NCBI GenBank assembly: GCA_004431415.1
Contig: QPMI01000395.1
Span: 496,001 to 560,000, forward strand
DNA length: 64,000 nt
Reading direction: 5' to 3'
From: Cyanophora paradoxa CCMP329
Taxonomy: Eukaryota; Plantae; Glaucophyta
The notes below the pieces were generated by a model that saw only the letters and a program-made list of their open reading frames with translations, ran no database searches and had not been told where the DNA came from. A program made the position numbers and the translations under genes. Below are positions 10,901 through 50,771 of the stretch, one piece after another. The first letter of the stretch is position 1; every line of letters begins with the position of its first letter.

Positions 10901-12616
10901 GCCCATGTCCATCGTTAATATTTCAAGTTCTATTAATTATATAACAGAGTATAACTACTTTTTGGAGATGGAGTACTTTCTGAAGCTGGCGAGCTCAAGC
11001 CGACACATGGAGTATCACGACAACGATGGCGACACGAATTCGAACAGGCCAAGGGGCAACATCTGGAATGGTTCCATCCCCTCCTATACCTATCGATATA
11101 TCCATACGATTTTATGGCAAGCTTAAGCCTGGGGAGCACCGCCTGGAGTTTATAATTATGCTTGATTATAAGCTTATCCATGATAGAGAGCTTATAATTA
11201 AGCCTGGAGAGCGCCGCCCACCGATTCATGTACGTGTGTCGCAGTGCGCATTCTCGGCGACGAGGTGGAAAGCCTCAAGCAGGCGCTCGACCGCTGGACG
11301 ACGATGACCGGCGATTACGTCAAGCCGCCGACGATGCAAGTGCGTCGTCAACGCTGAACGTGAACGTCGCGCGCCGGAACATTAATCTGCGCGGCCGCGG
11401 CACATTTATATATGTCGATATATAAGTGATTTTAATGAAACTTGATCTGAGCGCGGCTTGTATATACACGCAGCCCCCTGGAGGAATGTTCATGTACTAC
11501 ACACAGACGAAGGAGCAAGAGGACAAGACTGTCATCGCGGTGAGGATTGAAACGCTATTAATACCGCATATCAACCGCTAGCATGGACCATCGATACTTA
11601 GAAGCTTTAATCTGACACGAAACTGCGATCCTAACCTTTCGAACTTAATCTGACATTTCGAACCTTTAATCTGACACGCGTATATACGTGCGAACATGCG
11701 ATCAGGGCCACTTCGAGGGCGCAGTGGGCGACTGGGGCTTCGGTATCTCCAAAGAGACGAAGAAATGTACGCTTCGTTCAAATTTTATCCATCTGATCCA
11801 CTGTTGTCCGTTCACATTCAGTCCGTCTTATCATGAAATACGCGCGCAGCGAGCGTGCGGCCAGAGGCGAAGACTGACCAGCAAAGCTTGGCTTTGGCCG
11901 GCGCTGATTTTGGCGAGAAGGCCTTCGAAGCCACTCCCTCTAGATCTGGCGCTGCGGGAGGCCCCGCGGCCGGCGCCGGCGCCGGCGCCGAGGGTGCGGG
12001 ATCCGGTGCAGGTGGCGACTCGTCTGCACAGGTCAATTTAATTCCTCGTAATGTGTATAATGCGTGTGTGCGACGGCTCGGCAGGACCGGGGGAACGCCC
12101 CGCGCGAAGACTCGCGATCGCACTCAGAGGACCGTGCCGGCGCGTACCCCCCTCCCTCCCCTCCCCCTATTCTGCTGCTTGCAATTGCTGATCACGAACG
12201 AATCGAATGTGCAGGAGCGGCCGCTTCTTCGGATCCGGAGCAGCCGCAGCAGCGCATGCCCCCGGGAATGGTTCATGATCAGTACACCCCACGCAAGGGC
12301 GAGGGCGAGGGCGAGGGCGATGCGGCGTCGGCTTCGGCGCCGCTCTGGGGCTCAGGTGTGGCACCCCTCGCCGGAGGCCGGTCCCAGGGCATGATGGCGG
12401 CGCCCGCGCCCGTTTCGGTGCGCCCGTTATTAATTTTGGCGGCCGCGGCCGCGGGTGCATGCCGCATTAATTTTATAATATTGGCGCTTAACTATGAAGA
12501 CGGCGCCGGCGCAGGTGGCTTTCAAAGGCTACTCGAGTGAGTGATCATGATCATGCACTCAATTTAATCTGCAGCAGGGACGTCTCCAGATCCCCGAATC
12601 CCCTATAGCTAAGTAA
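7919..12616 (+). CDS. Multi-exon hypothetical protein with Cys/Trp-rich N-terminal region (could be two genes)
   Basis: Chain of exons with plausible splice sites: MVAPGAK..., WWPHAIKCKELCLCDCYCNVGAWCC..., CKESGPGSCCEVEY..., PPHGCTCFWSRCIIWPYCCP, VDRVIFTTQRAILV, DDEIGYLRDDIYML, GHFEGAVGDWGFG, ...ESPIAK*. Not every junction phase was verified. Confidence 0.55.
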
Positions 12617-12762
12617 TTGTAGTCGCAAATTTATTTCAACGCTTATCATAGAAATCAAGCCCGAGCCGCGTCACGGGGTGCATACACAAAATAATATTCG
12701 AAACTTGCAAGTCAATCCTTGGCAAAGAGCTAGAGGGCGGCACAACAAGCACGCGCGGCCGG

Positions 12763-13123
12763 CTAGTCGTCGGGGTACGCGGCCGCGAGGTCGGGGGTAG
12801 GCTCGTAGCGGCCCTTCGCCGCGTCCCATCGGATGAAGTGCCGCCCCAGTACCCCGCAGCGATCTGGCGGGACCGGCCCCTCCGCAGGCCGCAGCTCCCC
12901 CTCCCCGGCTGCCTTGAGCGTCGGCGGGGGAAGGAACGGGAGGGCGGGCGGCGGGGGTACAGCCGCACCGAACATCTCGTCCCCTCTACCGTCGGGCGTC
13001 TCATGCTGCAGCCCTGGTTTTAGACTTCAGAGGTCCACGCGGAACAGGGGTACGGCGCACGATGAGCTTGTAGCGCGGGGGTACGATGCCCGGGGCGTCC
13101 CAGCCCACCACGGCCCCCAGTAC
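12763..13123 (-). pseudogene. Duplicated 3' end (YccV-like domain) of FBXO21-like gene
   Basis: Near-identical to 29172..29533 (GAVVGWDAP...LGRHFIRWD.AKGRYEPTPDLAAAYPDD*); upstream exons absent. Confidence 0.8.
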
Positions 13124-16689: not shown

Positions 16690-18109
16690 CCGCCTAGCCG
16701 CCCACAGCTAGCCGCCCGCTCGGCATTGATGGAATGGCATAACTGGAGTGGCCGCGGAGCTCGCATGTACGCTCGCCGGTCGCCGCTCGGGGGAGGAAGA
16801 GGATCCGGAGAGAGCCGGGGGGGGGAGAGGGGCAGGGGGAGGGGGGGGGCTGGGGCGGGGGAGCCGGGGCCGGGGGGAAGGGGGAGGGAGGGGGCGGGGA
16901 AGATCGGGGGAGGGGGGGGGGGGGGGCGGGGGGGGGGAGACCCCCCGGGGGGCCGGAGGCGGGGAGCGAGGCCTAGGGGGGACCGTCGGACCCGCCTTTC
17001 AGAGTGAGTGAGCCGAGAACAGGTTTTGGGCGATGGGTCGGGTGAGGAGGTGATCATGATCATGAGGAGAGGGGGGGGAGGGGAGGGGGGGCGGGTAGAG
17101 CCGACGACCGATAGCCAGCACATACACGTATGCCCGGAGGCAAATTGCAAGGGGGGGGTCTTTTTTTCCGTTGGCAAAATCCTCAAAATAAGAGTCTTTT
17201 TATTTCGACAGCTGCCCGACGGAAGCCGCTAGACCGGCAGCGAGGCACGCGCGGTGGCCGGCATGCGATCTAGATCTAGCGAGAGCGAGGGCGCTAGCGC
17301 TATGCAGCCGACCCCGGGCAACACGCTCATCGGGCGCGCGGGGCGGAGGCGCTGCGGGCGGCGAAGCTCGCTGGGCGGGGCGGAGGAGAGCCTCGGAGAC
17401 AGGCGGCTGCGCGGCTCGGCGGGAGGGGCGGAGAGACGGGCGCGCGGCGGCGTGGCTCGGCGGGCGGGGCGGAGTAGCTCTAGCGGCGGGCGGCGCGCTT
17501 TTCAGCGGGCGGGAGCCGCGGGGCGGAGACGCGGCGGGGCGGCGGGGCGCCAGTTCCGAAGTTCAATTCAATTCAATTTTCCATTTCAAGGGTTTTTTGT
17601 TCTGAGAGCTATTGAAGTCTGGTAGGCAGTGGTAGCCCAGGGCCCAGGCCCCAGGCGTACGCGTAGCGAGCGCTAGCTGCAGCTTAAAGCTTGCAGATCA
17701 TCGGATGCCGTCTTCGTCTAATTAGACCCCACCTCGCACATCCTGAGACGAGCGGGGGGCGGGCGCCTGGCGCGAGTCGAAGACCTAGGATTGAAGATGA
17801 CCTACTATTGAAGAAGAAGAAAGATCTAGAGGGGGGAGGGGGGGAATGCGGGGGGCGGGGTGGGGGGTAGAGAGGGGCGAGCGGGGCGGGGCGGAGTCGG
17901 GGAGGCGGAGGGGGGAGGGGGGGCGGCGGAGGGGGAGTGGGGAGGATGCAAGGTGCTGAAACGCGAGGGACATAGAGCCGAAACAGGAAAGGGTTACCAG
18001 GCGATCGAGCTTGATCTCGCGGGCTTACGGTGGAGGCGGCCATCGGCGCGCACCCCCCCCCCCCACCCCCCCCCCACCCCCCCCACCCCCCCCCCCACCC
18101 CCCCCACCC

Positions 18110-19535
18110 CCCCCTCCCCTCCCCCTATTCTGCTGCTTGCAATCGCTGATCACGACCGAATCGAACGCACAGGAGCAGCCGCCTCGGAGCAGTCGCAGCA
18201 GCGCATGCCCCCGGGAATGGATCAGTACACGCCGCGCAAGGGCGAGGGCTAGGGCGAGGGCGATGCGGCGTCGGCTTCGGCGCCGCTCTGGGGCTCCGGT
18301 GTGGCCCCGGGCCCCCTCACCGGAGGTCTACGTCGGTCCCAGGGCATGATGGCGGCGCCCGCGCCCGTTTCGGTGCGCCCGTTATTAATTTTGGCGGCCG
18401 CGGCCGCGGGTGCGTGCCGCATTAATTTTATAATATTGGCGCTTAACTATGAAGACGGCGCCGGCGCAGGTGGCTTTCAAAGGCGACTCGAGTGAGTGAT
18501 CATGATCATGCACTCAATTTTATCTGCAGCAGGGACGTCTCCAGATCCCCGAATCCCCTATAGCCAAGTAATTGTAGTCGCAAATTTATTTCAACGCTTA
18601 TCATAGATCTAGAAATCAAGCCCGAGCCGCGTCACGGGGTGCATACACAAAATAATATTCGAAACTTGCAAGTCAATCCTTGGCAGAGAGCTAGAGGGCG
18701 GCACAACAAGCACGCGCGGCCGGCTAGTCGTCGGGGTACGCGGCCGCGAGGTCGGGGGTAGGCTCGTAGCGGCCCTTCGCCGCGTCCCATCGGATGAAGT
18801 CCCATCAGTTTAATCTGCAGCAGGGACGTCTGCAGCATAGCGCGGGGGTACGATGCCCGGGGCGTCCCAGCCCACCACGGCCCCCAGTACTACGGCAGAC
18901 GGCGGATCTATAAACGTAATTGAAAAGGCATCAGGTGAGTGGGAGGGGGAAGGAGGCAGGGAGGGGTACCCGAGGGGTACGAGGAGGTGAGTGGGAGGGG
19001 GAAGGAGGCAGGGAGGGGTACCCGAGGGGTACGAGGAGGCGACGAGGGGGGGTAGGAGGCGAACGACGTCTCCGATCCGGAAGCGGGGGTCCCCTGCGGC
19101 GAAAATGAGAAGCCAGGGGGGGGTAGAGGGAGCTGGAACGCGAGGGACCCTAGAAGCCGAAGCAGGAGAGGGGTACCGACGGCGCACCGTGCATACCCCT
19201 GCGGCGGCGGGCCCCCGAGGGCCCCTCCTCCTCGCTGAGCGTCGCCTCCGCCTGCGGGGGGTACCGGTGTAAAAGAAAGAAACTGAGGCTGCGAAGGGTA
19301 CACGCCTTGCAGAGGAGCCGGTCGACGAGGGGTACCTATCGAGTTCGAGTTCGAGTTCGAATTCAAAGTCGGGTTTTACCTATCGAGTTCGAGTTTCGGC
19401 GGAGGCGGGGGGGGGGGGGGGGGAGGGAAGAAGCGGGGGGAAGAGTCGGAGGGGGGTAGGACCTGGACAGAGGCGGCCTCGAGCTCGCCGGCGCCAGCGG
19501 GGGCCTGCGCACGAAGCGTCTCGAGCTCCGCCATA
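18110..19535. pseudogene. Segmental duplicate: 3' end of the 7919..12616 gene (+, with premature TAG) joined to 3' exons of FBXO21-like gene (-, with internal deletion)
   Basis: 18110..18800 matches 12150..12840; 18838..19535 matches 29480..30095. Confidence 0.85.
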
Positions 19536-20237
19536 GCCTCAGGGCCTGCCGACCCGGACCCCCTTTCGTCAGATCTAGATCTAGAGCAGCGTCGGTGGCG
19601 GTGGCGAAAGCGGCCAGGATTTCAGAGGTACGTACCCTGTCCTATCTCAGCGGCGGCGTACGTACCCCCTCTTGCACCAGCGGCGGACCTCGGTCGAAGC
19701 TTAGAATCCAATGATGAGCTCAGATTCGTTACACACTAAGCATTTCCTCTACAAAATGAACGCTCTCAAGGCTTAATTTATAAGCTGAAGCTTTATCTTA
19801 GACCATAGCTCAAAGTACTGATACGTATACGTATACCCTCGTTCATGTTTGCCCCGGCGTCTTGACTTGTTCCCGACCTCCCTCGAGCTTCTCTCGGGAG
19901 TCCCTCCCAATGGTGCACGTGAATCGAAGTGGGCGGGACGGCTGATCATGACGGCTCGAGTATATATGCGGTTCGAACTGATGCCGACAATGGCCAGACG
20001 TTAGCAATAGCTATGCGAAATTCTGCCCTTATGACAATACGAATGAAATTTTCTGGCCGAATGAACCAGAGTGCAATGCATGATTGGGTTTTTCAGCAGA
20101 ACATTATAACTATAGAATAGCGCAAGCGAACTTAGATCTTCGAAAATCTTGCATCCTAAAAAAGAATTCTGAAGATTAAATTTTTTTGGTTCGAAGTTGA
20201 ACGATGGTGAACGACGAGTGTCGAAACTCGCGAGAGC

Positions 20238-23200
20238 TTAGCGCCAACGGTACAGACTGATGGGGGCCATGGCCAGCGCGCCAACTTCCGACTCGTCCTC
20301 CTTGACTTCTGCGAAAATGGCCTTGATATCGTTGAGCACCTCGTCGATCTGCGGCGGGTTTAGGCGGCGTCTCCAAGGGCACCGGTTCTCGAGGCGACGC
20401 ACCCAGGGCAGGAACGAGCTCAAGAGCCAGCCGGGCTCTTCAGCTGCAGCCTCGCCGCCGTCGCCAGGAAGCTTCTTCTCAGCCTCCTGTCGCCGGGCCC
20501 CCATGTCGTCCAGGATCGCCCGCAGCCTCGGCGCCATTGAGGTTCTGTCGTTGTACTGCATGCTATCACGTTAGGGGCGGGCCCTGCACATGTGTATAAA
20601 TATCGATGCAGATTTCACGCACTATGGCTCCGGCGAATTCTGGGTTGGCCCCGCTTGTGTGCCGGAAAATGCGCCGAGGGCATAAAGCGAGCTGCGGCAC
20701 ATCAGCAATCGAAGGAAACTTTCATGCATCTAGATCTGACGAAACGCACATTCTGCCCATGGCCAGCGCCGAACTCTGCCTGTAGATCCCACACACGCAT
20801 TGTCTTGTACTGCCAAGTGACTGCCCACCGCCCGTCCTGCAGATAGGAAACGATGAAAAGGCGGCCGCGGCCGCAGCGACATCGATATCAACTCAAATGA
20901 CTCAAGCGCACTGCTGACAGAGATGCTTTGAAGCCTTCCAACTGCTGCAGCTCCTTCCCGGTCTCCAAGTCCCACACTCGCATTGTCTTCACTCTTGTAT
21001 TGTTGGCCAAGTAGTCGCGTTCGTCGGCCGTGACCGCCCGCCGACCGTCCTGTGTGCCGTCGACGGAGCTTTCGTCAGCAGCCTGCAACCGACTCGAGCT
21101 CCATTAAAGGACACAACGCACCGCAGAGAGAGCCACGAAGTAGAAATCATAATCGCCCGCTTTGAGCGTCAGTTGCCGGATCTCCGACCACTTCTTCAAG
21201 TCCCACAGCGTCACTGATCATGACTTGTTCTGGTCGCGCGACACTGCCCGCCTTGCGTCCTATCAATTGCCGTCACCGTCACCGTCGATTGCAAGCTCCA
21301 GTCATTATAATTAAAGGCGCTGCTACAAGCTGTTACAAGTGTTGCGCACCGGTGAGATGGCGATGGACGTAATGCTGACGTCATCCTTGACGCCCAGCCG
21401 CTTCGATCTCTTTGACGGCACCTTCTCTGGTTGATCCGTGTTCACATCGAATTCCACCATCTCGCGTCCGGCCCGATTTCTCCAGGCAATTGCCCGCCGA
21501 CCGTCCTGGAAAATTCAACAGTCAGCATTACAGTCAGGAAATTTAAAAACCGCTGATTGCTGAGCGTTCGCACCGCCGAAAGAGCCACAGAGTCAAACAC
21601 GTCATATTGGGTCTCGGAAGAAAGCTTGAGGCTGACCAGTGGCATGTCCCCAGCATTGGAGTTCAGGTCCCAAACATCGGCGACTTGGTTCCGGTTGAGC
21701 ACAATGAGTCGCTTGTTGTCCTGCAAGCCACGCGCCCGTCAGCACGGCAGCATGGGGGCCCAATCGCTATCCCGGCCGCCCGACATCGGGTTAACTTGCC
21801 GCCGAGATAGCCAGTGATAGAATTGCGGTTTCCGTTGTGCGGTTCCCAAACCGAGTGGTCGTGTCCATGCGTCGACTCTCCTTCGAACTCGAGCCCTTCA
21901 TTTGCCGCAGTTCCATTCCCGTCTCTAGATCCCAGACACGCAGTAGCCCGCTGGAGCTGCCTGAGACCGCCTTTCTGCCATCCTGTGCAAAGATAAACGG
22001 ACAGCTCAGCCTTCCATCCGGTGCATGTCTCCGCAAGCACGTGCACGGGCACGGACCGCCGACACAGCCAAGCATGCGATGACATCCACGTGACCCTCCA
22101 TTTGAGGTCGGTGCAAGACAGCCTTCGTGTCCATCTCCCATAGACGCACGGTTTGATCGTCACCACCCGAAACCGCCCGCCTCCCATCCTGCAGCCCCGG
22201 CCCCAACCTCAGCATATGCGCATGCCCTGTCTCAACGCAAGACACGAAGAGACTACGTGCACTCACCGCAGACAGGGCGACACAGACCACATCACCCGTG
22301 TGGCCTTTCAGCTGCCTCACCGACTCGCCCGTGACGAGGTCCCAGAGCAGCACGTTCCCACCGCCGCCGGTCGATGCAGCCCATCGCCCATCCTGTGCAC
22401 GACGTCAGCAAAGAGCTGCAGGCCATGCCAGGAGGAGGAGCTCTTCGCACCGCAGACAGAGACACACGCAGGTTTCTCAGATCGCAGTTCTCCAACCGCC
22501 GTTCTGCACCCTCCTCCTCCAGGTTCAGCACTCGAACCGCGTGCCCGCTACGGAAGAGCGCATGTCGTCCGTCCTGCCACAGCGACCCGGTAATCGGCTC
22601 GTCATTGCAGCTCGTCATCAATTGCAAAAAACGCACCTGCGACAGGGCCAGAAGATTCATATCCTGACCGCTTCTAGGCCACGGCAGCTCCTGCAGCTCT
22701 GCGCCCGTTTCCACGTCCCGCACAAGCACCATCTTCTCCTTATCCTTTTCGGATTTCATGCTGACCATCCGCCTTCCATCCTGCGGCCGTGCCGGGCCGG
22801 CTATCATCAGCAAGCGCTGAGCTCAATAAAAATAGGTTTGCACAAGCCACGTACTGCGGACAAAGTCGCGAAAGCCTCAGACGTCGAGTCGCGATCGCGA
22901 TCGGAAGGTGGGAGCCTTCGCAGCTCCTTCCCCGGGCCCGTCTTTACATCCCATAATTGCACTTTCTTGTAGTCACGGCATGTCACCACGCGCTTCCCGT
23001 CCTGCCGTACGGATCGATCTTAAGCATAGAGTTGCAACGTTCACGTCTCCACACGATCCTGGCAGAACGCACCAGCGACACGGCCACGCCAATGAAGTCC
23101 GCCGCAAGCACCAGCCACCACAGCTCCTGCCCCTTATCCAAGTCCCAAACTCTCACGGTGCCGTCCCGGCTGCTTGAAGCCGCGCGCCGGCCGTCCTGCT

Positions 23201-26200
23201 TGCGGGATCGCGACCCTCAGATCTTCAGGTCGAAGAAAAGGGATCGATATCGTCTTCAAAAATACAAACCGCAGAGCAAGCTACAGATGTGATCGTGTCT
23301 TTGTGGCCGCCAAATTGCCACAGCTGTGCTCCTGACTCCAGATCCCAGACTCGTACTGTCTTGTCATCGCCGCCAGACACCGCGCGCTTCCCGTCCTGCC
23401 GCCGTACCGCTATCATGATCAGAAAAGATGTTGATCATGAAATCGGCATTCGGGCACGCACCGCACTGATAGCCACAGAAGCCACCCGACTTTTGTGACC
23501 GCGAAGCGCGGGAACGATGCTCACGGCACAGCGGTCCAATTTCGCGCCAGAGAGGTTTGCGCCCACCAGATTCGCTCCATCTAAGAAGCATTCCGTGAGG
23601 TCTGCCTCGGAGAAGTCTGCTCCCGCAGCCTCCAATCGCTGCAGATCAGCCCCGGGTACGCGAATCCCTTGCAATCGCGCGTTTGCGAAAGAGAAGCCGG
23701 CTGCCGCATGCGTAAGCGCTTCAAGCCGCGCGATGCGGCTACATGCATATGGCGCACCATAATTCAGAATAGTTATCGCATTGGAGGCGGCCGTGATATC
23801 TTCCTTAGACGCTTTGCGGCTCCGGCTCCCTGCAAGCAGCCACAGGAGATGCTGACCACGAGCTCGGCGTCAAAGGACGTCAAGCAAGCAAAAAGAAACG
23901 CAATTGAAGGAAGCGGATCACATCGCGGTAGGATGAATCCTTCGAGCAGCGGTCGGCGTGGAACCTCAGCAGGCTCGGCTCACCCACAATGGATCTGCGT
24001 ATGCATTAAATGTCAGTCAGACGGACGGACTGACCAAGGCCTTCGTGAATTCAGTCCAAATCACCTTGTGTGGAGGATGCTGTATGCGGCCTTGGGCCTA
24101 GATGCTTGTTCTGTTCCATCCATGTCGCTCTGCACAAGTGTAGGACGTTTCGAGTAAGTGGCGCGATTTAGAAATTGAAAGGGGTCGACGGACGACTCTC
24201 TGTTCGGTGCTCTTGAATGCAAAGTCCGCAGCGAAGTATTCGAGCAAAGTCTGGCGCGCAGATCAAATAGAAAACGCAAATGCGTGTTGGGAAACGCACC
24301 TTGTGCAGGAAGCGCACGTAGATGAACTCTCCCGCACGAATGATGTGCAGCGGACTAGACTCTAGCGCTAATTTTTGGAGCGGATCTTTGCTCGTGAGCA
24401 ACGTCACGCAATCCGCCTCGCTGGCGAGATTTGCTTCCGCGGAAGGACTCTTCTCGAGCGCTCCCATCGGTCGGAAGATACCGGCTTCTGCAGGCGAAGA
24501 GGAAAGAGGGCAAGCGACTTCAGATATGGACGCCTGCAGCAGCAACGATGAGGAGACTACAAATTCTCAAATCGAAACGAAGAAAGCAGTGCACCCGATA
24601 CATGGAACAAGCAAGTTCGCGGCAGAAGCCTCCGCAGTAGGAGTGGAACTGCTCTGCACCCCAATTACAATCTTCTGCATTCGCACAGTCTCAATGAGCT
24701 GGACAGGCCTAGGAATCCAAGCTTCAATTTTACAGAGTTCACCTGAAATCTTACGGCTTGTATCATTTACTTTAATCCACTGTCTTTCGAACCAGTTCTG
24801 CAAAAAATGCATGTACATTAGTGAAACAAATTACTTAGTATGGAGTTCAGCTCTAATGAAATCAAAACAAAACGGGAAAATAAACAGTAGCGCACCGAAA
24901 CGAAATAAGAATACAGTTCCAGACAAGAAAATGCTTCGTCGCGAGCATTTGTTACCTTTCCTTCTCGCTTTTTACTGCGCAGAAGGAATGAGCCTGAGTA
25001 TTGATGCACTTGCAATGTGCAAAGGGGAGGCGCACCGCTCCAGATTTTCGACGACCTCCGGCAGCACACGAGCAACCATGCTGTGGGGGCCAATGGCACC
25101 GTTACCGTTCGCGGGAGGGCGGCGGAGGTCATAATTATATCAGCAAGCACCTCAACGAGAAAGGGTTGGTGACGAGAGCTGCTGCGCCGGGGATGCGATT
25201 GATGTGCTGCAGGTAGTCTTTTGCACTCCACATGCACTCAACCGAGGCGCCCACTTGCTTGTGAAGCTCCACAAATTTTTGAAAGTAATCGATTATCTGC
25301 GAAAGGCTTCATTTCAGCGACGCGCACTTCATCTTTGGCGAGTGCGCACTTCGTCGGGCCCAAACATGCGCGTGCACAGCTCCGTCAGCGATGAAGATCT
25401 AGAAGCCCCGGCGCGCGCGGGCTCCATGTTCGGTGTGAACAGTTCCTGCCAGTGATTAAGCGCCAGCACATTCACAAGAGACACATGTGAGCATGGTTTG
25501 CACCTTGTAGTTCGGCAGACGCGCGGTGTAGGCCAGGCGGCATGTGATGATTGCCCCGGAAGCCCACGCGCTTGCATCGTTCGTGCGCCAGAGATTTACC
25601 TTCACGTCCAGCTCGTCATACGCATCCAGGAGAAGAACGAGCCCGCGCCTGTTCGGTGCGCACGCATGAATATTAATATCACACGCGGTCCGCGCGCGCT
25701 CATGATCACTCGTGTTTGATCAAGGGTAGATCGTTGGACTCGACGCCGAGCTCCTTGGCGACGTGTTCACGCAGGCCGTTGCGCGCTTTCGCCTTGCTGA
25801 GGGTCGTGAGCCGCACGAGACATGTCACCGGCAGCGCGCCGTCAGCCGCCGGCCCGCGCCCCGACTCCAGCTGCTCGCAGGCCTTGCCGTGGAGGAAGGA
25901 GAGGAAAGTTGACTTGCTGGAGCCGGCCTCCCCCACGAGGAGAAGCACCCGCGGGTCCGCGGCCGCCGCCGGCTCCGCGGCCGCCGGAGACGGCACGAAG
26001 CAGCGGAGAAAGGCCTTGACCTCGTCGAAGAGGTCCACCACCCTCGAGTCCTCGCCTTCAACGTCGTCGCCTTCGCCTTCGCCGGCCCCCGTCGTGGCCT
26101 TCGGCGGCACGTACAGCTCCAGGTCCTTCTTCGAGGCTCGCGCGTCCATCCAGTTCTTGGCGTACTGCGCACCAGATCTACATCAGGCGAGAGCGCCGTG

Positions 26201-28520
26201 TATGCGTCGGTGCAGGAAACTTGAGACTTGTACCTTCGCGACCTTGGAGAAGACGGGTCCTGCGGCAGCTGCCTTCTGCACGTCGACGCCGCATCGCTGG
26301 AGTGCCTCTTCGATGGAAAGCGGGTGGTGCTGCCCGCTGCGGTGATACTCGACGGCGGTGTGAGACAGGACGCGACCGAGCAGAGCCCGCGCGGTCAGCT
26401 CGTCGAGTCCGACGGCCTTCAATGCTGCCTTCTTGGGGAGCTTGACGGTCTCGGCTGAGAAGGGCTGCGTCAGCGATGGGGGGTGGGAGGGGGAAGGGGT
26501 GGGGGAGGGCCGGGGGGCGGGGAGAGAGAGGGATGGAAGGGGGCAGGGGTAGGGCTCAAGCTAAGGGTACATGGGCAAGGAAGGGGATAATTGAATGAAC
26601 TAACGAAAACGGACGGGCGGGGGCCGCGCGCGGGGGGAGGGGGGGAAGAGAGGGGGGCGGGGGAAGGGTAGGGAGAGGCAACGGGAGAGAAGGAGTGAAA
26701 GGGGAGGTTAGTTGCGGGGAGGGGGGGGGAAAGACAAGCCATAGGGAGGGGGCTAAGAGTAGCTAAGGGGTCAGTGGGGGGAGAAGAGGGACAGGAGAAG
26801 TATAGGGAGAAGAGAGTAAAGTATAGGGAAGAGGGGAAGGAATACCGTATAGAGCAGTACATGGGAAAAACGGGGAAGTATATAGGGAGGGTACCAATTG
26901 GAAAGTCCGGGAGACTGCTTTTGTCCCAGAGGAGCACGATCGTCACGCCAGCATCATCCGCCGCCTTGAGCTCTTGAAGTACGAACTTGCTCTTGAAAAC
27001 GTCTGCGGGGGGGGGGGGGGGTCGGCGTGCGGCGGGGGGGGGGGGGGGGTTGAGGGGTGGGGGCGGGTAGAGCCCTTCCCCCCGGGGGGAGGGGGGAGGG
27101 GGGAGGGACGGGGCGGGGAAGGGGGTGGGGAGGGGGAGGGCGCCGGCAGGGGGGGGGGGTAACGGTTGGGAGGTTGGGAGGAGGGGATGAACATATAGAT
27201 GAACAGGCGGATCGCGTCTAGGCGGACGGACTACGACGGACAACGGCGCGTCTACATGTACGTTTACGGACGGAGGGGCCAGGGGTACAAGAGAGTGCGG
27301 CTGCTCAGCGGATGGAGAGCCAGATTCGGAGGCGCTAGCACGGGCAAGGACAGCGCTAGCGTACCTGCGGTGAGGAGGAGGAGGACGCTGCGGGAGGCGC
27401 GGATGTTGGCACTCAGGTCGTGGATAGCGCTCAGGTCATCGCGGTCGAGGAAGATGCGCAGCTCTATGCCGCGCTCGCTTGTCATCTTATCCGCCTGCGC
27501 GCGGCATCGCACGTCGGAATTCGAAACGCGACGTCGAAGTCGGTGGCGCGGCCGCGGCCGCGGCCGCGGCAAGCCCGAGTGAGGGCGCGGCGCGCGCGCA
27601 TACCGTGGTCTTGAAGATGCGGGCGAGATCGCTTGCCGTTGACTGCTTGTGCGAGATGAATATGTCGTACTTGATGCCTGCGCATGCATATGCATGCTCA
27701 AATCATTCGTGGTTCAAGGCATGTGCAAAGTACTAGTGCGCGCTTCGCATGACTGGCGGGACTAGTCGGCGGGAAACGCTAGATTACGAATTCGAATTCG
27801 AACCGGAATCGGTAACCGAGGGCGCGGGCGGCAGATCCAGCCTCTTGCCCATTGCGGACTGCTTCTTGGCACTAGTAGATAGGGGGGGGAAGTGACATTA
27901 TTCTGACAGTACTCTGACATAATTTAAAATGTCAGACCCGATATTATTCTGACATTATTTTTGTCCGACTTGATATTATTCTGACATTATCCCAAAATGT
28001 CAGAATACTGTCAGAGTGATATCAGATATAATGTCATGTTGATATCAGATATAATGTCATGTTGATGATGAAATCTCCTTGCGGGGCCGCCCGGGCGGCC
28101 GCGCGCGTATAGTACGGATGTTTAGTATGAAGAGGCTATATATTGTCAAAGTAAAGTCAAGATAATATCGGGCATGTTGACATTATTCTGACATTAAACC
28201 GGCGCAAGCGGACACTCATCATCGAAAAAGCACCGCCCGACGCTAAATGTTGGGCCGGGGACGCCCGCCGGCCTAGTTCCCGAGCTGATTCTAGCATTTG
28301 AAGGTCAAGTCTCGCGCTGTCTAGTAATGTCAGAATGATGTCAGAATAATGTCATTCATTCTGACATTTTAAATAATGTCAGAGTAATGTCAGAATAATG
28401 TCACTTCCCCCCCCTATCTACTAGTGTGGCCATGGAGCACAGCTCCGGGCAGCAGACCTCCTTCACGACCTCCATGAGCGCGGGCAGACCGACCAGCTTC
28501 TTGCTAGACTGGTCGTCCAT
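20238..28520 (-). pseudogene. NLR-like TIR-NACHT-pentapeptide-WD40 gene, probably inactivated
   Basis: TIR: KYDIFISHKQ|..IFLDRDDL..IRASRSVLLLLT|DVFKSKFVLQELKAA. NACHT: LLLVGEAGSSKST, FLLDAYDEL, IITCR, LVTNPF, FLQNWFERQ, VRFLHK. Pentapeptide: [17 protein letters not shown]...ANLSGAKL. 13 WD40 exons. CACTA insertion in presumed first exon; in-frame TGA at 21218-21220. Confidence 0.85.
27870..28426. mobile_element. Non-autonomous CACTA (En/Spm) element, 557 bp
   Basis: Termini CACTAG...CTAGTG; 67-bp TIR with 2 mismatches; 3-bp TSD TGG (27867-69, 28427-29); many TCTGACA/TGTCAGA subterminal repeats; no coding capacity. Confidence 0.95.
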
Positions 28521-29171
28521 CGTACTAGGGTGACTGCCGAGGGCGCCGCGGCTGTAACGCCGAGTGCACCGGTCCTGCATCTGTACCCCCCTTCGGGTAA
28601 CTTCAACTTCACTAACTTGCAGCGAACCTGCAGCGCTAGCTGGGATCGGACGTCGACCCCCTGCGCATATGCGCATGCGGCCCTTACACTATCTGTATAG
28701 CTATAAAGATCTAGATGAGACTAGATCTGCAACTGCCGCGCGCCAGCTCTAGATCTGCGCATGCACTGCGGCAGGCTGCCCGGCCCGGCGGCCGCCGCAG
28801 CGCCTTCGAATTCCGTACCGTAGTACGTACCGTGCGCGTAGCGCGCGGCGCCTAGGTCCGACGGTCGGTCGACGTGATCGACGAGCTACTCCTCCGAGGC
28901 TCCGCGCCGAAGTCGACGCGGCCGGGCGCCGGCGCCGGCGCTGTCCGGTCGTCGACCCTTGCATGCCCACGTGCATGACTCAGTGGACCGGATCCCGGAT
29001 ATCGGCGATCGGCGATATCGATCCGGGAGTTCCTACAGCCTGAGCTAGGACTAATTATAATCGAGCAGTAGGCCTTAGTAGGTTTCAAGCTTAAGAGATT
29101 AATCTCGAGCCGGGAAAAACAGCCTGTGCAGGCCTAGGGCACGAGCGCGCACAACGTGCACGCGCAGCGGG

Positions 29172-32100
29172 CTAGTCATCGGGGTATGCGGCCGCGAGGT
29201 CGGGGGTAGGCTCGTATCGACCCTTCGCCGTGTCCCATCGGATGAAGTGCCGCCCCAGTACCCCGCAGCGGTCTGGCGGGACCGGCCCCGCCGCCGGCCG
29301 CAGCTCCCCCTCCCCAGCTGCCTTGAGCGTCGGCGGGGGAAGGAACGGGAGGGCGGCCGGCGGGGGTACAGCCGCACCGAACATCTCGTCCCCCGTCCCG
29401 TCGGGCGTCTCGTGCTGCAGCCCTGTTTTTAGACTTCAGCGGTCCATGCGGGGCTGGGGTACGGCGCACGATGAGCTTGTAGCGCGGGGGTACGATGCCC
29501 GGGGCGTCCCAGCCCACCACGGCCCCCAGTACTCCGGCAGACGGCGGATCTGTAATTTGAAAGGGATCAGACGTGGGGTGGGAGGGGGGGAAGGAGGCAG
29601 GGAGGGGTACCCGAGGGGTACGAGGAGGCGACGAGGGGGGGTAGGAGGCGGACGACGTCTCCGATCCGGAAGCGGGGGTCCCCTGCGGCAAAAATGAGAA
29701 GCCAGGGGGGGGGTAGAGGAAGCTGGCGCGAGGGACCCTAGAAGCCGAAGCAGGAGAGGGGTACCGGGGGCGCACCGTGCATACCCCTGCGTCGGCGGGC
29801 TCCCGATGGCCCCTCCTCCTCCCTAAGCGTCGCCTCCGCCTGCGGGGGGTGCCGGTGTAAAAGAAGAAAACCGAGGATTGAGCGGGGCGCAGGGCGGGGT
29901 ACGCGCTTTGCGGAGGAGCCGATCGACGAGTGGTACCTGTCGAGTTCGAGTACGAATTCAGGATTTCGGCGGGGGGGAGGGGGGGTGGAAGAAGCGGCGG
30001 GGGGGGGGGGAGAAGCGGGGGGAGGGGTAGGACCTGGACGGAGCCGGCCTCGCCGGCGGCGGCCTGCGCACGAAGCGTCTCGAGCTCCGCCATAGCCTGC
30101 CGCCCCGTACCCCCTCCCGTCAGAGCAAGCCTTAAGCCCTGTGATTAGCGCGAGCTCAGCGGCCTTATAATAAGTGCTGGCCTAAGCCTTATACTTAGTG
30201 TGGCCACCCTAGGCTAGCGCTTGCCTTGCCTCGGCCCAGCTAAAATTTCAGGCGCCGCGAACCTCAGCTTAAGCCTTAGCCTAAGCTTAAACCTGAGCTT
30301 AAGCCTAGCTTGAGCCTGGCTCAAGCCTAGCGAGCAAGCTTGCGCACCTCTTCGATGCGCTCATCTTAGCCTAAGCTTAAGCCTTAGCCTAAGCCTAGCT
30401 AGCTCAAGCCTAGCTTGAGCCTTCTAATGAGCCCTAGGCTAGCGCTCGAGCCTCAGCTCAGCTCAAGTTGTAAGCCCTGCCGCAGTTCACACCTCGTGGA
30501 AGCGCTAAGCCTGAGCTCAAGCCTAGCTTAAGCCTATGCCTATGCTTCAGCCTCAGCCAGCTTAAGCCTGGCGCCGCGCACCTCGTCGAAGCGCTGGAGG
30601 GCGATGGCGACGGAGGCGCGGAGGAAGCGGTCGGCGGGGGAGGGCCGCGCCCCCAGCAGCACCCCGAGCCCCGCGTGCAGCTGCCGGGGGGGGGGGGGGG
30701 GGGCGTTAAGTGAGTGAGGCGTGGGCGCGGGGGCGGAGCGGGGAGCAGAGCGGGGCGAGCAGAGTGAGTGGGGTGAGGCGTGAGGCGTCTCTCTAGATCT
30801 AGCCCATCATCTTAGCCTAAGCTGAAGGCGGAGCAGAGCGGGGCGGGGCGCGGGGCGGACCCGGTGGAGGTCGTCGTTCTGCTGGTAGATTCCGATCAGG
30901 TTCCGCTGCAGGTTCCCCCGCCCCCCCGCGATCAGGTTTAGGGGGGGTTGGGGTGTGTGTGTGGGGTGGGGGGAGGGGGTACCAGCATGCGGCAGAAGAC
31001 GTCGCGGGGGGACACCGACTCGAGGGCCGCGGGGGAGAGCGGGAAGCCGAACTAGAAAGGGGGAAAGGGGCGTCGGAAGGGGGGTACGGCCCCTCGGCGC
31101 GGGCGCGGCGGGCGCACGAATCCCTGCAGCTCCGCGAGGCGCATCGCGCGGCCCCTGCGAACGAAGTCAGAGGGGTCAGCGAAGGGTCTCGAGGCGGCGG
31201 GCGGCTGGCGCGGTCCAAAGCGAGCTTGAAGCGAAATCGCCCCACAAACCCCCAGAGCCCTCTGGGCCGGTACCCCCCTCCCGTCCCTTCGTTCGCACCC
31301 GAAGCAGTCGACGTAGCGCCAGGCGTCGGGGCGCAGGTCCTCCCCTGGGGCCGCCGGCTCCCCCCGGGGCCCCTCCCGCGCCTTCACCAGAAAGTGCTGC
31401 GCGGGGGATTCGAACCCGTGAGCTCGAGACGGAACCCGAATTCGAACCCGGGTCGCTTACCTGGGGCGCCCCGACCATGCGGACGGGTAGGCCCGCGCGG
31501 CGCGCGACCGCCGCGAAGAGAACCTGGCGGTACCCCGCCGCAGCGTGAGGAGGGTGGGGGGAAGGGAAGGAGGGTACGCCGATCACCGAGAGGGAGATGG
31601 GGATGCCCTGCTTCGAATCCAGGAGGCGGTGAATCAGAGAGTTCTCCTCCCGATAGTAGTTCTGGGGGCGGGGGGGGGTACGCGTGAGGGGCGCAGGGGG
31701 GCAGAGGGGGGGGAAGGGCACGCCTCGCGGTTTCCCCCGTACCCGAGCTCAACAAAGAGGTACCTGCGCGGAGTGCGCTGGTACCAGGGAGCGATTCGGG
31801 GGGTTGACGGGAGGGGTACGCGTACTTTGCGAGGCGCTCGCACCGCTCCGCGTCCGTCGCGGACGGGTCGTCGACGCGGCAGAAGCCGTCCGCGAGCTGC
31901 GAACGAAGTCAGAGAGAACGAAGGGAGGGAGGGAGGGAGGGGTACGGGGCGGCTCGCCTCGTCCAGCCTGCGGAGGACGGCCTCGCGGCTGGCGGAGGGG
32001 TCCGCCCAGCGGGCGATGAGGATAGCCCCGTCCTGTCCGGAATGAGAAGAGAACGGCGCCGGCCCGCCGCGGACGGGTACGCGCGCCTCGTACGGGAACT

Positions 32101-43925: not shown

Positions 43926-46900
43926 CTTTCGCCCCAGCGGGGCGCTCTTAGGGGTTGGGATAGTAGACTCTATGCCCAGCCCTCTAGACCGGGTCCGCCC
44001 AGGGCTGCTCGGATGCGCAGAAGCTAAACTGAACTGAGCTCATGTGATCTTCGTTCTCGCTCAGGTGGACGTGGCGGCGTTCGTGCAGCGGATGGAGGGG
44101 GACGCCAAGGCGCGCGACGCGAAGCTGAAGCAGGTGCCCCGCCCCCGCCCCGCCTCGGCTCGGCTCCGCTCCGCTCTGCCGGGGTGCTCTTCTAGAACGG
44201 GAGCACGCCTAGCGCCTCGCCTCCGCCACACCCGCTCCTAGCTGGGGATCTCGGCCCCCCGACCCCGACCCCGTCTCGGCTATGCCGGGGTGCTCTGCTC
44301 TGCTCTGCTCTGCTCTCGCTGCTCTGCTGAGGCTCGGGGCCCCCGACCCCGACCCCGACCCGACCCCGCCCCCGACCCCGCCCCCGACCCCGACCCCGAC
44401 CCCCGACCCCGCTGCTCGGCTCGGTTCCGCTCGGCTCCGCGGACGCCGCCGCTCCTTGAACGGGAGCACGCCTAGCGCCTCGCCTCCGCCGCACCCGCTC
44501 CTAGCTGGGGATCTAATTCCCTCGCCTAAATCCTACCTTGGCTCTGCTTCGCTTCGCTTCGCCGGGGTGCTCTGCTCTGCTCTCGCTGCTCTGCTGAGGC
44601 TCGGGCAGCACGAGGACGCCGAGCAGAAGATCGGGGGCGCTCTTATTTAAGACGGGGGGCTCTTATTTAAGAGTTGGGATAGAAGATAGACTCGTGCTTT
44701 GCCTTGGCTCTGCTTCTGCTGAGGCTCGGGCAGCACGAGGCCGCCGAGCAGAAGAAGGCCCGCGAGATGGCCGCACGCAGTGCGCAGTACCCCGCCCCCC
44801 TGGCCCCTCCCCCCCCTTTCTTCCCCCCCCCCCCCCCCCCCCCCCCTCCCACCACCACCCCTTCTAGCTTCACTTCCTCCCCTTCCTCCCCTCCCCTTCC
44901 TCCCACCCACCTCCTTCCTCCCCCTTCTAGCTTCTAGCTTCTAGCTTTACGGTCGACAGCTGAGCGGGGGCGCCCTTGCCGGCGCGCGCTGCTTCCAGGC
45001 CCCCAGGAGCCCCCCTCCCCCCCCCCTCCCCCCCCTCCCCCCCCCCCCCCCCAGCCTCTCCCGGCTTCCCCGAGTTTCAGTCTCAAGCTCTCCTCCCCCT
45101 AGCTTTCCGGACCCCCATAGCCTGCCCTCTAGCTTTCAGCTAGCTCGCCCCGGCCGTGGCCGGCTCGGCTGAGGGGCTTGGGGGCCGGGCAGGCGCGGAC
45201 CCGGTGGACGTGGACGCGTTCGTCAAGCGCGTCGAGGCCGACCTTAAGGTCGCCCCATCCCTCCCCCGGTCCTTAGATGAGAGAGATTCCTTAGCTCTTC
45301 TTAGATTCCTTGGCTTAGCTCTTCCTTAGATTCCTTAGATTCCTTAGCTCTTCTTAGATTCCTTGGCTTATAATTAGCTCTTCCTTTAAATTCCTTGGCT
45401 TCGAATTCGCGCGTCGAGGTCCCCGCCCCCTCCCTCCCTCCGTTCCCGCGCCGGCTCCATCCCCGGCGGCTCGCAGTTGCTTGGGAGCTCTAGGCGGACC
45501 TTAGGGCGTCCCCAGCTCCTAGCCCGTGCTCGGCTTAATCTAGCTCTATCTCTTCCCTAAGGCTAGGTGGCTAGCTCCTCTCGCCCTGCCCTGCGCCTCG
45601 CCCTTTAGCTTCTTCTTCTTCCTTTCCTCGGGTCTGAGACTTGTGGTGCGCAGACGCGGACGGAGGGCCTGGCGAAGAGGCAGAGGGACCAGGAGAAGGT
45701 CCGCCCCGCCCCCCGCCCCCGCCCCCGCCGCCCCCGCTTCAGCTTCGCCCCGCTCGCCTTCTAGCTATAGCCCTAGAAGGCCCCGCCCCCGCCCCCGCTC
45801 TGTCGCTAGCTTTCTAGCTAGCCTCTAGCTAGCCCTAGAAAGCCCGCCCCCGCCCCGCCCCGATTTAGCTGGCTTTAGCTAGCCCTAGAAGCCCGCCCCG
45901 CCCCGACCGCCCCGCCCCGCCCCGCCCCCGCTTTGCCCAGCTCTCTGTTTAGCTAGCCCTAGAAGGCCCGCCCCGCCCCGCCCCGCCGCGCTCTAGCCGG
46001 CTTTTCCCTATCCGCACCTATCTCCACCGCGCCGCCCAGCGCCCTCCTCGGCCTTGCTCACGGGGCGGGAAGGGGGCCGGCTTTTCCTATCCTCTCGCCG
46101 GCTTTTCCCATCCGCACCTAGCTCCACCGCGCCGCCCAGCGCCCTCCTCGGCCTTGCTCACGGGGCGGGCGGGGACCGGCTTTTCCTATCCTCTCGCCGG
46201 CTTTTCCCATCCGCACCTAGCTCCACCGCGCCGCCCAGCGCCCTCCTCGGCCTTGCTCACGGGGCGGGCGGGGACCGGCTTTTCCTATCCTCTCGCTGGC
46301 TGCACCCATCCGCACCTAGCTCCACCGCGCCGCCCAGCGCCCTCCTCGGCCTTGCTCACGGGGCGGGCGGGGACCGGCTTTTCCTATCCTCTCGCCGGCT
46401 TTTCCCATCCGCACCTAGCTCCACCGCGCCGCCCAGCGCCCTCCTCGGCCTTGCTCACGGGGCGGGCGGGGACCGGCTTTTCCTATCCTCTAGCCGGCGT
46501 TTCCCATCCGCACCTAGCTCCACCGCGCCGCCCAGCGCCTCCTCGGCCTTGCTCACGGGGCGGGAAGGGGGCCGGCTTTTCCTATCCTCTAGCCGGCGTT
46601 TCCCATCCGCACCTAGCTCCACCGCGCCGCCCAGCGCCCCGCGCCGCCCCGACGGGGCGGGGGCTGACGGGGCGGGCGGGGGCAGGCGCTGGTGGCGGGG
46701 GCGGTGGGGGCCGGCAAGAGGGTCGACGAGCAGACCTTCGTCCAGCGCATGGTCTCCGACGCAAAGGCGCGAGAGAGCCCTACCCCCCATTTCCCCCCCC
46801 CCCCACCGTCCCGCATAGAGAGGGAGGGTAGGGCCGGAAGGAGAGGGCCGAGAGGGCGCTCAGAGAGAGGGCGAGGGCGAGGCGGGGCGGGCCTCATACT

Positions 46901-48082: not shown

Positions 48083-50771
48083 TCAGAAGCCGGTTCCGGG
48101 CCCGCGGCCGGGGTACGGGATCGAAGCGACGGCGTCCCACGGCTTGAGGCCCCCCGAGGACTCGTCCCAGAACTCGGCCCCCTGCGCCCCGCATCGGATC
48201 GGAGGTCGAGGAGCTAGCCCCGCATCAAGATATCAAATTAAAAGCTCGGCTCACGTAGGTGGTGAGGACGAATTCGCGGATCAGGTGCTTGACCAAGCCC
48301 AGGTCGACCTTGCCCGCCTGGATCCTGCGCGATTCGAATTCGAGCTCAGCGGGCGCGTTACTTTAACGGCGCGTGAGGAAAGGAGGCGCTGACATTGCGG
48401 TGGTGAGGGCGAGGCGCTGCTCGGCGACCTTGCCCGTCACCTCCTGGTACCGCTCCCACACCGACGGCCCGTTCACGATCACCACAGGCGGCGTCGGGGG
48501 CGGCAGGGCCCGCCCGGCCGCGGCCCCCGGCCCCGCAGCGGCCGTGCCCGCGCGATTCGAGCTGCGCTTCACTGTGAGGCGGGGAAGCCTCGAGCTCGAG
48601 GCGGGCGGGCGCGGGGAGGGAGGGGCGGGCGCACTGCTGCTGCTGCCTGTGGCCGGGGCCGGTTGCGGCGTTGACCAAAGGGACCGCTCCAGGAATCGCT
48701 CCGGGCATGGCGCTCGAACTCGCGACTGCAGCTAGCGCGCGCCTGACCGCGGAGGCTGTTCCAGGTGTAGCGCTCGGGCTCACGACTGCAGCTGGCTCGC
48801 TCCCGGCCGCGGGGGCTGCTCCGGCCACAGCGACAGCTCCAGACATGACGCTCGAGCTTGCAACTGCAGCTGGCGCGCGCCCGGCCGCGGCCGCGGGGGC
48901 TGCTCCGGCCACGGGGAACGCTCCAGACATGACGCTCGAGCTTGCAACTGCAGCTGGCGCGCGCCCCGCCGCGGCAGCGGGGGCTGCTCCGGCCACGGGG
49001 AACGCTCCAGACATGACGCTCGAGCTTGCGACTGCAGCTGGCGCGCGCCCCGCCGCGGCCGTGGGGGCTGCTCCGGCCGCAGGGACCGCTCCAGGCATTG
49101 CGCTCGAGCTCGCGACTGCAGCTGGCGCGCGCCCCGCCGCGGCCGTGGGGGCTGCTCCGGCCACGGGGACCGCTCCAGGCATTGCGCTCGAGCTCGCGAC
49201 TGCAGCTGGCTCGCGCCCGGGCGCGGCCGCGGGGGCTGCTCCGGCCACGGGGAACGCTCCAGACATGACGCTCGAGCTTGCAACTGCAGCTGGCTCGCGC
49301 CCGGGCGCGGCCGCGGGGGCTGCTCCGGCCACGGGGACCGCTCCAGACATGACGGTCGAGCTCGCGACTGCAGCTGGCGCGCGCCCCGCCGCGGCCGCGG
49401 GGGCTGCTCCGGCCACGGGGACCGCTCCAGGCATTGCGCTCGAGTTCGCGACTGCAGCTGGCTCGCGCCCGGGCGCGGAGACTGCTCCGGCCACGGGGAA
49501 CGCTCCAGACATGACGCTCGAGCTTGCAACTGCAGCTGGCGCGCGTCCGGCCGCGGCCGCGGGGGCTGCTCCGGCCACGGGGACCGCTCCAGGCATTGCG
49601 CTCGAGTTCGCGACTGCAGCTGGCTCGCGCCCGGGCGCGGAGACTGCTCCGGCCACGGGGAACGCTCCAGACATGACGCTCGAGCTTGCAACTGCAGCTG
49701 GCGCGCGTCCGGCCGCGGCCGCGGGGGCTGCTCCGGCCACGGGGACCGCTCCAGGTATTGCGCTCGAGCTCGCGACTGCAGCTGCCGCGCGCCCGGCCGC
49801 GGGGGCTGCTCCGGGGGCCGCTCCAGGCATGGAGCTCAAGCTCGCGATCGGCGCGCGGCCGACCGCGGGGGCTGCTCCGGGGACCGCTCCGGGGATTGCG
49901 CTCGAGCTCGCGATCGGTGCCCGCCCAAATGGTTCTGGGGCCCTGGGGGCGCCCGGGGGAGACGGCCAGGGCGGGGCGGAGCTCCGGGGGGCGAGCCCCG
50001 CGCCGCGGCCCGCGCCGCCCTCGTCGCTCGAGCTCGACGACGAGCTCGAGATCCACGAGTGCATTTCCCTGCGAATAATCATGACATCAATAAATAAGAA
50101 AGAGATCTAGCTAGAGGAAAGAACTGCAGGCAGGCTCGGAGAGGGGGAACGTCGGCGGGCGGGCGCGGCGCACTCGTTGGGCCACGGCAGGAGGTCCGGC
50201 CCCGGGGCCCCCGGCTCCGGCTCCGGCTCCGGTTCCGGCTCCGGCCCGCGCTGCAGGTGCGGTGGCCCGCCCCTCGCGATGCACCTCTGGCGCGCTCGCT
50301 CGGCCAAGAAGACCTGCCGAGATATAGCTTATAATAAGCTTATAATAATAACTAGGCTCAAGCTTCTGCCAAGAAGACCTGCGTGCGCCTCGTGTTCTTT
50401 GCCACCGCCCTGCGCGCGCACACGAAAAGCTTGAGAGTGAGATCTAGAGGCCGCGGCCGTCGGTCCGGATCCGACGCTTCGGAGCCTCGGCGTCCCCGAT
50501 GAGGCAAGGGCGACGCGTGCACGCACGCTGCGACCTTCTCGCGGTTCCTCTCGTACACGGCCTTGAGCTCGGCCAGGCCGCCGGTGTACCGGGTCTGGAG
50601 GCGCGGCACGATGTGCTTCTCTGCGTACTGGATGTACTTGGGGTCCAGCATCTGCTCCAAGCGCATCGCGGTCACCCTGTCGAACACGCAGAGCGCCGGC
50701 TCGCGCCTAACCGCCAGGTGGTACCTGCAGTGACCGAGTAAGGCACGGCGCGGGCGCGGGAGACTGGCCAT
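48083..50771 (-). CDS. Hypothetical protein with central Ala/Pro/Ser tandem-repeat region
   Basis: Exons MASLPRPRR...ERNREKVAA, VFLAERAR...(PE)n, REMHSWISS..repeats.., IQAGKVDLGLVKHLIREFVLTTY, AEFWDESS..GTGF*. Confidence 0.55.
48690..49920. repeat. Coding minisatellite, 84-bp unit with 78-bp variants, about 14 copies
   Basis: Unit encodes PGAVPVAGAAPAAAAGRAPAAVASSSAM; unit lengths are multiples of 3. Confidence 0.9.

Follow-up and report, generated by a model that had tools for sequence, protein, structure and literature searches.

Does a receptor diversify its sensor by trading whole exons? This question is raised by a gene on the minus strand of a 64-kb (64,000-nt) stretch of the Cyanophora paradoxa CCMP329 genome (contig QPMI01000395.1), called the window below. 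The gene resembles NOD-like receptors (NLRs) and encodes, in order, TIR-like, NACHT, helical, pentapeptide and WD40 regions and a tail. A preliminary description of the DNA had taken its 13 WD exons for interchangeable modules of an innate-immune diversification system. The reading that we favor, with a probability of roughly two in three, is that this WD40 gene, with introns at one site of the repeat, had its array copied as DNA in units of exon plus intron; that the copy in the window is old and broken; and that other members of its family still diversify their sensors.

The full model of this focal gene has 33 introns and one gap, left by a miniature inverted-repeat transposable element (MITE), in 4.7 kb of coding sequence. 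The public annotation consists of two fragments of it, models P0001 (304 aa) and P0104 (248 aa); the NACHT exon matches P0001, whose accession names Cyanophora paradoxa, at 100%. Across 1503 aligned columns the focal gene is 43.5% identical to the paralog P0003. At third codon positions the G+C content (GC3) reaches 0.84 over the initial seven pieces, against 0.62 for the middle of the gene and 0.69 for the WD exons.

All 13 introns from the pentapeptide exon to WD exon 13 are in phase 0 and lie at one shared site, after S-[A/L/Q/P] and before the Asp of D-[G/N/A]-[R/K] (SA/SP↓DG), exactly as first described. The remaining 20 introns of the gene are spread 10/6/4 over phases 0/1/2. By phase alone, 13 of 13 has a probability of ~1e-4 (0.5^13); sharing the same codon is far less probable. 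By established WD40 anatomy the site lies where strand a of a blade turns into strand b, and each exon therefore covers strands b, c and d of a blade plus strand a of the following one. The 12 full exons range from 123 to 183 nt. All are multiples of three and symmetric, bearing out the claim that they are frame-neutral; the 126 nt cited for exon 23270-23395 is correct but recurs in only one other full exon (2/12), and the ten remaining exons depart from it by whole codons. The WD introns span 58-90 nt, with 12 GT-AG pairs and one GC-AG pair, after exon 8. Pfam recognizes WD40 in 5 of the 12 WD exons scanned, the stop-bearing exon 11 having been omitted. In four DNA sequencing runs, which may derive from the window's own strain or source, the WD region is continuous on one contig with no alternative letters listed. 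No joints between WD exons occur in these runs, although contigs reveal the presence and not the absence of rare or somatic forms, and neither strand of the window contains spare or inverted WD exons.

Within this regular frame, the repeats of the focal gene have diverged widely. Mean identity among the 12 full exons is 36%, the maximum is 57%, and none of the 66 pairs reaches 0.85; their best matches elsewhere in the family do not exceed 71%, and the GH dipeptide is retained in 3/12. The WD introns have no real similarity to one another (best local score 22, versus 29 for unrelated introns). A slight excess of WD-WD over WD-other scores (13.3 versus 12.3) was rejected as a sign of homology, the pairs being non-independent and the WD introns longer. 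The length variation of this copy is the product of in-frame indels in an old array, not of recent cassette swapping.

Two lesions had been overlooked, a TGA in WD exon 11 and a 557-bp MITE. The TGA is the only internal stop among 1569 codons. It is not an assembly error, because the four DNA runs list no differences there (with the same caveat as to their source), and stop-codon reassignment was set aside in view of this single occurrence. That ten exons changed in length and none shifted the frame implies prolonged selection to keep it, and the single stop is then likely recent. The MITE, which we take to be of the CACTA type from its hallmarks, splits the reading frame behind codon 30 of the full model and lies inside intron 1 in model P0001; contig pieces cross both of its ends, with ~29 letters on the short side, slightly less than the threshold for counting as a bridge. 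A downstream Met or the splice of P0001 could bypass it. The focal gene is likely an old, no longer homogenized and recently broken member of its family.

This family comprises at least 24 models, namely the focal gene and 23 others that share an identifier format; a Cyanophora accession is confirmed for eight genes. In an unrooted FastTree phylogeny of 56 cores (P0012, P0079 and P0119 left out), the 23 rows from Cyanophora fall together on one side of a long branch (Shimodaira-Hasegawa-like support 100) and are not nested within Mycoavidus; the focal gene groups with P0002 and then with P0003. Run X1 holds a 9,094-nt contig that matches a focal WD exon, and a contig of equal depth joins it to P-loop and TIR-like exons; the WD piece recurs in the RNA-type runs X21 and X24. 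These contigs likely belong to a sister gene that is transcribed and that may be the one encoding P0002. For the focal gene itself, no RNA data set was listed as containing it, and a search of three RNA-type runs at 80% likeness returned paralog pieces only; this blank is uninformative on expression.

Paralog junctions were recovered by aligning contigs to WD exon 1 at 80% likeness. The intron site is common to paralogs and is spliced in RNA-type contigs. At a junction assigned to P0020 by two matching peptides, an AG acceptor precedes DGR in DNA runs X1 and X17, whereas RNA-type runs X21 and X22 read straight through from one repeat to the next. All six DNA pieces listed at the start of exon 1 extend 1-7 letters into the acceptor (one, a whole 61-nt contig, is less telling). 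All 12 RNA-type pieces listed go no further than the edge of the exon, in some cases because the contig itself is finished, and two of their loose ends run into the preceding repeat of P0005 and P0004. Since P0020 belongs to the deepest-branching clade, the intron is likely older than the family expansion, as far as this one junction can indicate. Models P0014-P0017 carry extra peptides at 18/18 inter-repeat junctions. The peptides are of three homologous types, which recur from gene to gene in different orders (A A B B A A A B C A in P0016, A C A C B in P0017). We read them as probable intron remnants copied along with their exons. Intron type in P0016 does not follow the similarity of the flanking exons (0.83 versus 0.84).

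In several paralogs the repeats are close copies of one another. When the first and the last unit are left aside, repeat identity averages 0.84 in P0016, 0.78 in P0005, 0.76 in P0010, 0.73 in P0004, 0.70 in P0003 and 0.66 in P0017, followed by 0.61 in P0012, 0.49 in P0009 and 0.44-0.47 in P0019/P0020; most units are 42 aa long. Variation is concentrated in a few columns. Three paralog groups were compared (43, 13 and 22 units; units with fewer than 28 aligned columns dropped; variability measured as column entropy) with the fungal HNWD receptors, in which positions 10, 11, 12, 14, 30, 32 and 39 have a high ratio of nonsynonymous to synonymous substitution (dN/dS) (PMC12222747; this and the other papers are cited from excerpts). 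Six of the seven most variable columns fall at the HNWD spacing (p=4e-4 after 42 offsets), and columns 34, 36, 10 and 12 are spaced like the four selected codons of the top face (PMC1805685). Repeat order is also lost between close relatives: P0004, P0005 and P0010, whose cores are 84-90% identical, are not collinear (p 0.78-1.0), nor are P0016 and P0017 (p 0.32). Collinearity tests of the focal gene against paralogs were dropped as unreliable, several exons having aligned only in part.

Swapping of whole exons should keep both halves of each exon linked while breaking linkage across the intron. Linkage within exons exceeds that across introns in one of seven genes, P0004; the two are equal in P0005 (0.42/0.44) and P0010 (0.44/0.45), and neither is detected in the other four. 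Within the exons of P0005, two b-c and two d-a signatures occur in all four combinations. All five repeated loop signatures recur within one gene and none across genes; the best cross-gene unit is 95% alike, and no identical repeat is common to two genes. In paralogs, exchange boundaries often lie inside exons, and recombination of DNA is thereby favored over shuffling exon by exon. Contrary to what had been proposed, exchange does not clearly proceed in units of one exon. The linkage pattern is in keeping with homologous recombination or conversion among repeats in which the intron is a passenger, and the hypervariable columns of the paralogs, predicted binding sites, are likely reshuffled in this way. 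The idea of modular receptor diversification thus has support for the family, with its shared site, HNWD-like repeats and lost order, and lacks it for the gene that inspired it, with its 36% repeats, diverged introns and stop.

The order of domains, N-terminal effector-like, central nucleoside triphosphatase (NTPase) and C-terminal repeats, is the tripartite NLR-like plan of NACHT proteins and other members of the STAND class (signal transduction ATPases that have numerous domains). An AlphaFold model of the sister P0002, which is 53% identical to the focal gene, has NOD2, NLRC4 and NLRP3 as best fold matches (E 3.5e-10); built from 74 sequences, it has a predicted local distance difference test (pLDDT) score of ~90 over the core and ~40-70 over the TIR-like part. 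The Pfam NACHT match is below cut-off for P0002 and precomputed in other members. The acidic Walker B motif is retained. Canonical Walker A reads GxxxxGK[S/T]; Ser or Cys-Ser precedes the Lys in the focal gene and in 8/8 listed Cyanophora paralogs, and Gly in 3/3 Mortierellaceae. The Ser-type motif would be a family mark that may change nucleotide handling. A Glu of the TIR-like region aligns with the Glu of the TIR_2-positive P0022, which we take to be the catalytic residue; P0022 gave no solved-structure match by sequence. Pfam scans of the focal gene and its relatives yielded no HET domain. N-terminal domains are exchanged within the family (P0004, P0005, P0010, P0014-P0018, P0022) and include two TIR types, helical domains and SAM (precomputed PF00536/PF07647 on P0017 and P0018). 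P0004 starts with a TIR-like and P0005 and P0010 with a helical domain, despite their similar cores.

The nearest relatives outside Cyanophora, at 22-30% identity, are intron-free Mycoavidus genes and Mortierellaceae proteins. The top 20 proteins looked up include 16 from Mortierellaceae, one from Mycoavidus and one from Cyanophora; the search profile contained one Linnemannia protein, so the ranks favor that group, and a search with P0003 alone also placed Mortierellaceae first among named outsiders. Among 42 prokaryotic loci, 13 are from Mycoavidus and supply 12 of the 14 full-length matches at E <1e-17, plus one weak match. Contiguous ~126-nt repeats in one frame are found in 8/8 Mycoavidus loci and in both metagenome loci with a full-length match, out of 20 metagenome loci retrieved. 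A DNA pattern of acceptor plus WD-exon start had no matches in the metagenome contigs.

These data are compatible with the following history. An ancestor with the bacterial-type NACHT-pentapeptide-WD40 plan would have gained one intron at the SP↓DG turn, and unequal crossing-over and gene conversion would have spread the exon-plus-intron unit along the array before the family expanded. In active paralogs turnover would be ongoing, with the framework kept alike, top-face residues varying as in HNWD genes and breakpoints falling in exons and introns. The proteins may act as STAND switches, in which a ligand bound by the propeller would trigger NACHT oligomerization and activation of the N-terminal TIR-like or helical effector. 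In the focal gene homogenization would have stopped long ago and in-frame indels accrued, the stop and the MITE being late arrivals.

Several observations weigh against this scenario. Turnover is not family-wide, internal likeness being 49% in P0009 and 61% in P0012, and the collinear order that the preliminary description had named as the mark of simple tandem duplication, absent from P0004/P0005/P0010, is found in the clade of P0019/P0020 (p=0.0035). P0004 has exon-wise linkage (rho 0.57 versus 0.15). The hypervariability is an entropy of protein columns and not dN/dS, and ordinary WD40 arrays, too, vary most at the top face: Mortierellaceae have the same best offset, with 4/7 columns. As this offset is best in diverged arrays too, the telling feature is the near-invariant framework and not site position alone. 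The paralog sequences are automatic models, and near-identical repeats can be mis-assembled. The paralog intron site is directly visible at only a few junctions, and junction types A and C have no terminal xAG codon. Walker A carries Ser where Gly should precede Lys, TIR_2 on P0002 stays below the Pfam cut-off (E=0.004), and the immune role of the family is putative. Finally, apart from the TGA the focal frame is open throughout its 1569 codons, and omission of exon 11 would preserve it, so that "broken" is unproven.

This last point bears on a different reading, that WD exons are a splicing cassette, with many sensors made per gene by exon skipping, exon 11 a silenced spare and the focal gene functional. 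All WD exons are symmetric, in exon 11 the stop coincides with the sole TAG acceptor and no other WD intron is as long as the one before it, and exon 8 has a GC donor; skipping of exon 11, whose acceptor is unusual for the gene, may yield a 12-exon product in frame. There are precedents in brown algae, in splice variants of leucine-rich repeat (LRR) exons of ROCO genes (PMC11378527) and inactivated repeat exons in Ectocarpus NB-ARC-TPR genes (PMC3341825), TPR denoting tetratricopeptide repeats. However, skipping an exon that spans b-c-d and the next a would alter the blade number of a closed propeller, and the paralog mosaics lie inside exons, which is impossible by splicing. Contigs contain no skipped joint for any family member, a weak argument as contigs drop rare forms. 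We consider splicing as the source of diversity unlikely. Equally doubtful is a broader proposal, an exon-cassette immune repertoire on a bacterial-type NLR in which one-blade cassettes would be rearranged between genes in DNA and chosen by splicing, with exon 11 as a spare. Were it true, a unicellular plant relative would make many TIR-coupled sensors from about two dozen genes.

The array could also be the fossil of an ancient tandem exon duplication in a non-immune scaffold, free of diversifying selection. The low likeness of the focal repeats, their dissimilar introns and the collinear P0019/P0020 pair are what it predicts. It does not predict paralog repeats that reach 95% likeness and keep their frameworks near-invariant around a few hypervariable columns, nor the loss of order between genes with 84-90% identical cores, nor the swapping of effector domains between close paralogs. 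This makes a mere fossil distinctly improbable. Independent intron gains at a favored site in each repeat of an intron-free array would suit an intron-rich gene with dissimilar WD introns, but are very improbable given 13/13 introns at one codon and none elsewhere in WD exons, exon ends that are mostly GCG/GCA/CCG rather than the proto-splice consensus end MAG, and paralog junction peptides that are homologous between repeats.

Table. Features of the NACHT-WD40 gene in window coordinates
Feature	Position	Strand	Remarks
Whole gene model	20238..28520	-	1569 codons, 35 pieces (exon 1 cut by MITE), one internal stop
First coding piece, upstream of MITE	28430..28520	-	GC3 0.93; start Met is that of P0001
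MITE, 557 bp	27870..28426	.	67-nt terminal inverted repeats starting CACTA; 3-bp target duplication
Coding piece past MITE	27804..27869	-	In-frame Met, possible start
TIR-like exons (four)	27604-27677, 27365-27494, 26895-27002, 26234-26454 (span 26234..27677)	-	64% identical to P0002
NACHT exons	25151..26164	-	Walker A variant in 25710-26164; Walker B in 25504-25648
Helical/winged-helix region, nine exons	23758..25080	-	46-50% identical to P0002 and P0003
Pentapeptide-repeat exon	23462..23700	-	Ends in first WD strands; Pfam Pentapeptide E=1.3e-16
WD exon 1, 126 nt	23270..23395	-	Most canonical repeat
WD exon 2, 123 nt	23073..23195	-	
WD exon 3, 147 nt	22855..23001	-	
WD exon 4, 144 nt	22637..22780	-	
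WD exon 5, 123 nt	22451..22573	-	
WD exon 6, 126 nt	22267..22392	-	
WD exon 7, 132 nt	22057..22188	-	
WD exon 8, 183 nt	21800..21982	-	GC donor; 19-residue insertion
WD exon 9, 147 nt	21574..21720	-	
WD exon 10, 156 nt	21350..21505	-	
WD exon 11, 138 nt	21122..21259	-	In-frame TGA 21218-21220; sole TAG acceptor; longest WD intron before it (90 nt)
WD exon 12, 138 nt	20912..21049	-	
WD exon 13, 87 nt	20750..20836	-	Partial repeat
Tail exons (two)	20623-20691, 20238-20555 (span 20238..20691)	-	Homologous to P0003 and P0009 tails

The window has other features. A dispersed repeat (12149-13123, 18107-19573 and 29149-30124; 77-94% identity) has two copies flanking the focal gene; the notion that these are the ends of an element was set aside given the third copy at 12149-13123. 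Its terminal peptide recalls, as we presume, the C-terminus of FBXO21/YccV-like proteins. At 1-2100 on the minus strand, a second STAND-type NTPase gene (NPHP3_N E=5e-6, AAA_16), unrelated to the family, exits the window start. A 3.6-kb tandem duplication (30971-34602/34610-38238) with 99.6% identity is either recent or an assembly artefact. Two minisatellite-like arrays lie at 45718-46661 and 48690-49913. On the minus strand, 51698-63625 is a Ty3/gypsy-like element (protease, reverse transcriptase, RNase H, integrase). Two long open frames come before it (821 and 854 codons) and match nothing in Pfam, an unusual extra coding capacity.

How does this family compare with known systems? Of the three lineages with primary plastids, glaucophytes are one. 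Two surveys with a glaucophyte in their sample treat, in the excerpts, NB-ARC-type genes (PMC7145615, PMC8891106), and we found no description of a Cyanophora or glaucophyte NLR-like repertoire or of this WD40 family in a literature search outside which most subscription journals lie. The closest match in domain order, with a homologous core, is the NACHT-pentapeptide-WD40 layout of Mycoavidus cysteinexigens and Mortierellomycota (PMC11291939, PMC9815663; the source writes NACHT-PPR-WD40, and we read PPR as pentapeptide repeat), which in Mortierellomycota is described as shared with or acquired from Mycoavidus (PMC11291939). Unlike Cyanophora, with an intron per repeat and an altered Walker A, the bacteria have contiguous arrays, and the Mortierellaceae repeats tested are 43-48% alike. 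Tetrahymena LRR genes are similar in that a unicellular organism uses symmetric one-repeat exons (90 bp, phase 2) for which growth by unequal crossing-over has been proposed; they number in the thousands, and the excerpt describes LRR genes with no NACHT core (PMC6564038).

Brown algal ROCO-LRR and NB-ARC-TPR genes likewise place one repeat per frame-preserving exon in candidate receptors, and share loss of order between recent paralogs and gene birth and death; to their inactivated repeat exons the stop-bearing exon 11 may be a counterpart (PMC3341825, PMC11378527). They differ, as far as the excerpts go, in having an open LRR or TPR solenoid instead of a closed WD40 propeller and NB-ARC or Roc-COR instead of NACHT; the focal gene, moreover, has short introns, no inverted spare exons in the window and an unfixed exon length.

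The NWD/HNWD genes of Podospora anserina (HET-E, HET-D, HET-R) combine NACHT with a WD40 sensor (PMC1805685, PMC12222747, PMC4986451, PMC13449251). As in these genes, Cyanophora paralogs have near-identical 42-residue repeats that vary at the same spacing (a d-a loop pair and a b-c turn pair), and genes of high and low conservation are mixed, next to pseudogenes (putative in Cyanophora) with stops and transposons. In contrast to HNWD genes, the effector is TIR-like or helical and not HET, a pentapeptide linker is present and each repeat has an intron; no identical repeat was found shared between Cyanophora genes, and a ligand is only hypothetical. Against the >80% internal conservation of HNWD repeats, P0016 reaches 0.84, P0005, P0010 and P0004 approach it, and the focal gene has 0.36. 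HNWD repeat number is polymorphic between strains; the focal array is the same in four DNA runs, possibly of one strain. The family would work like an HNWD-type NLR, yet the focal gene is not an HNWD and mainly illustrates how such a gene ends. How HNWD repeats are kept alike is described as unknown (PMC13449251). In uniting HNWD-type turnover with one-repeat exons, the family brings together two known sensor diversifiers in a cultured, sequenced alga, where introns provide a neutral tag for each repeat from which exchange tracts and breakpoints can be mapped directly.

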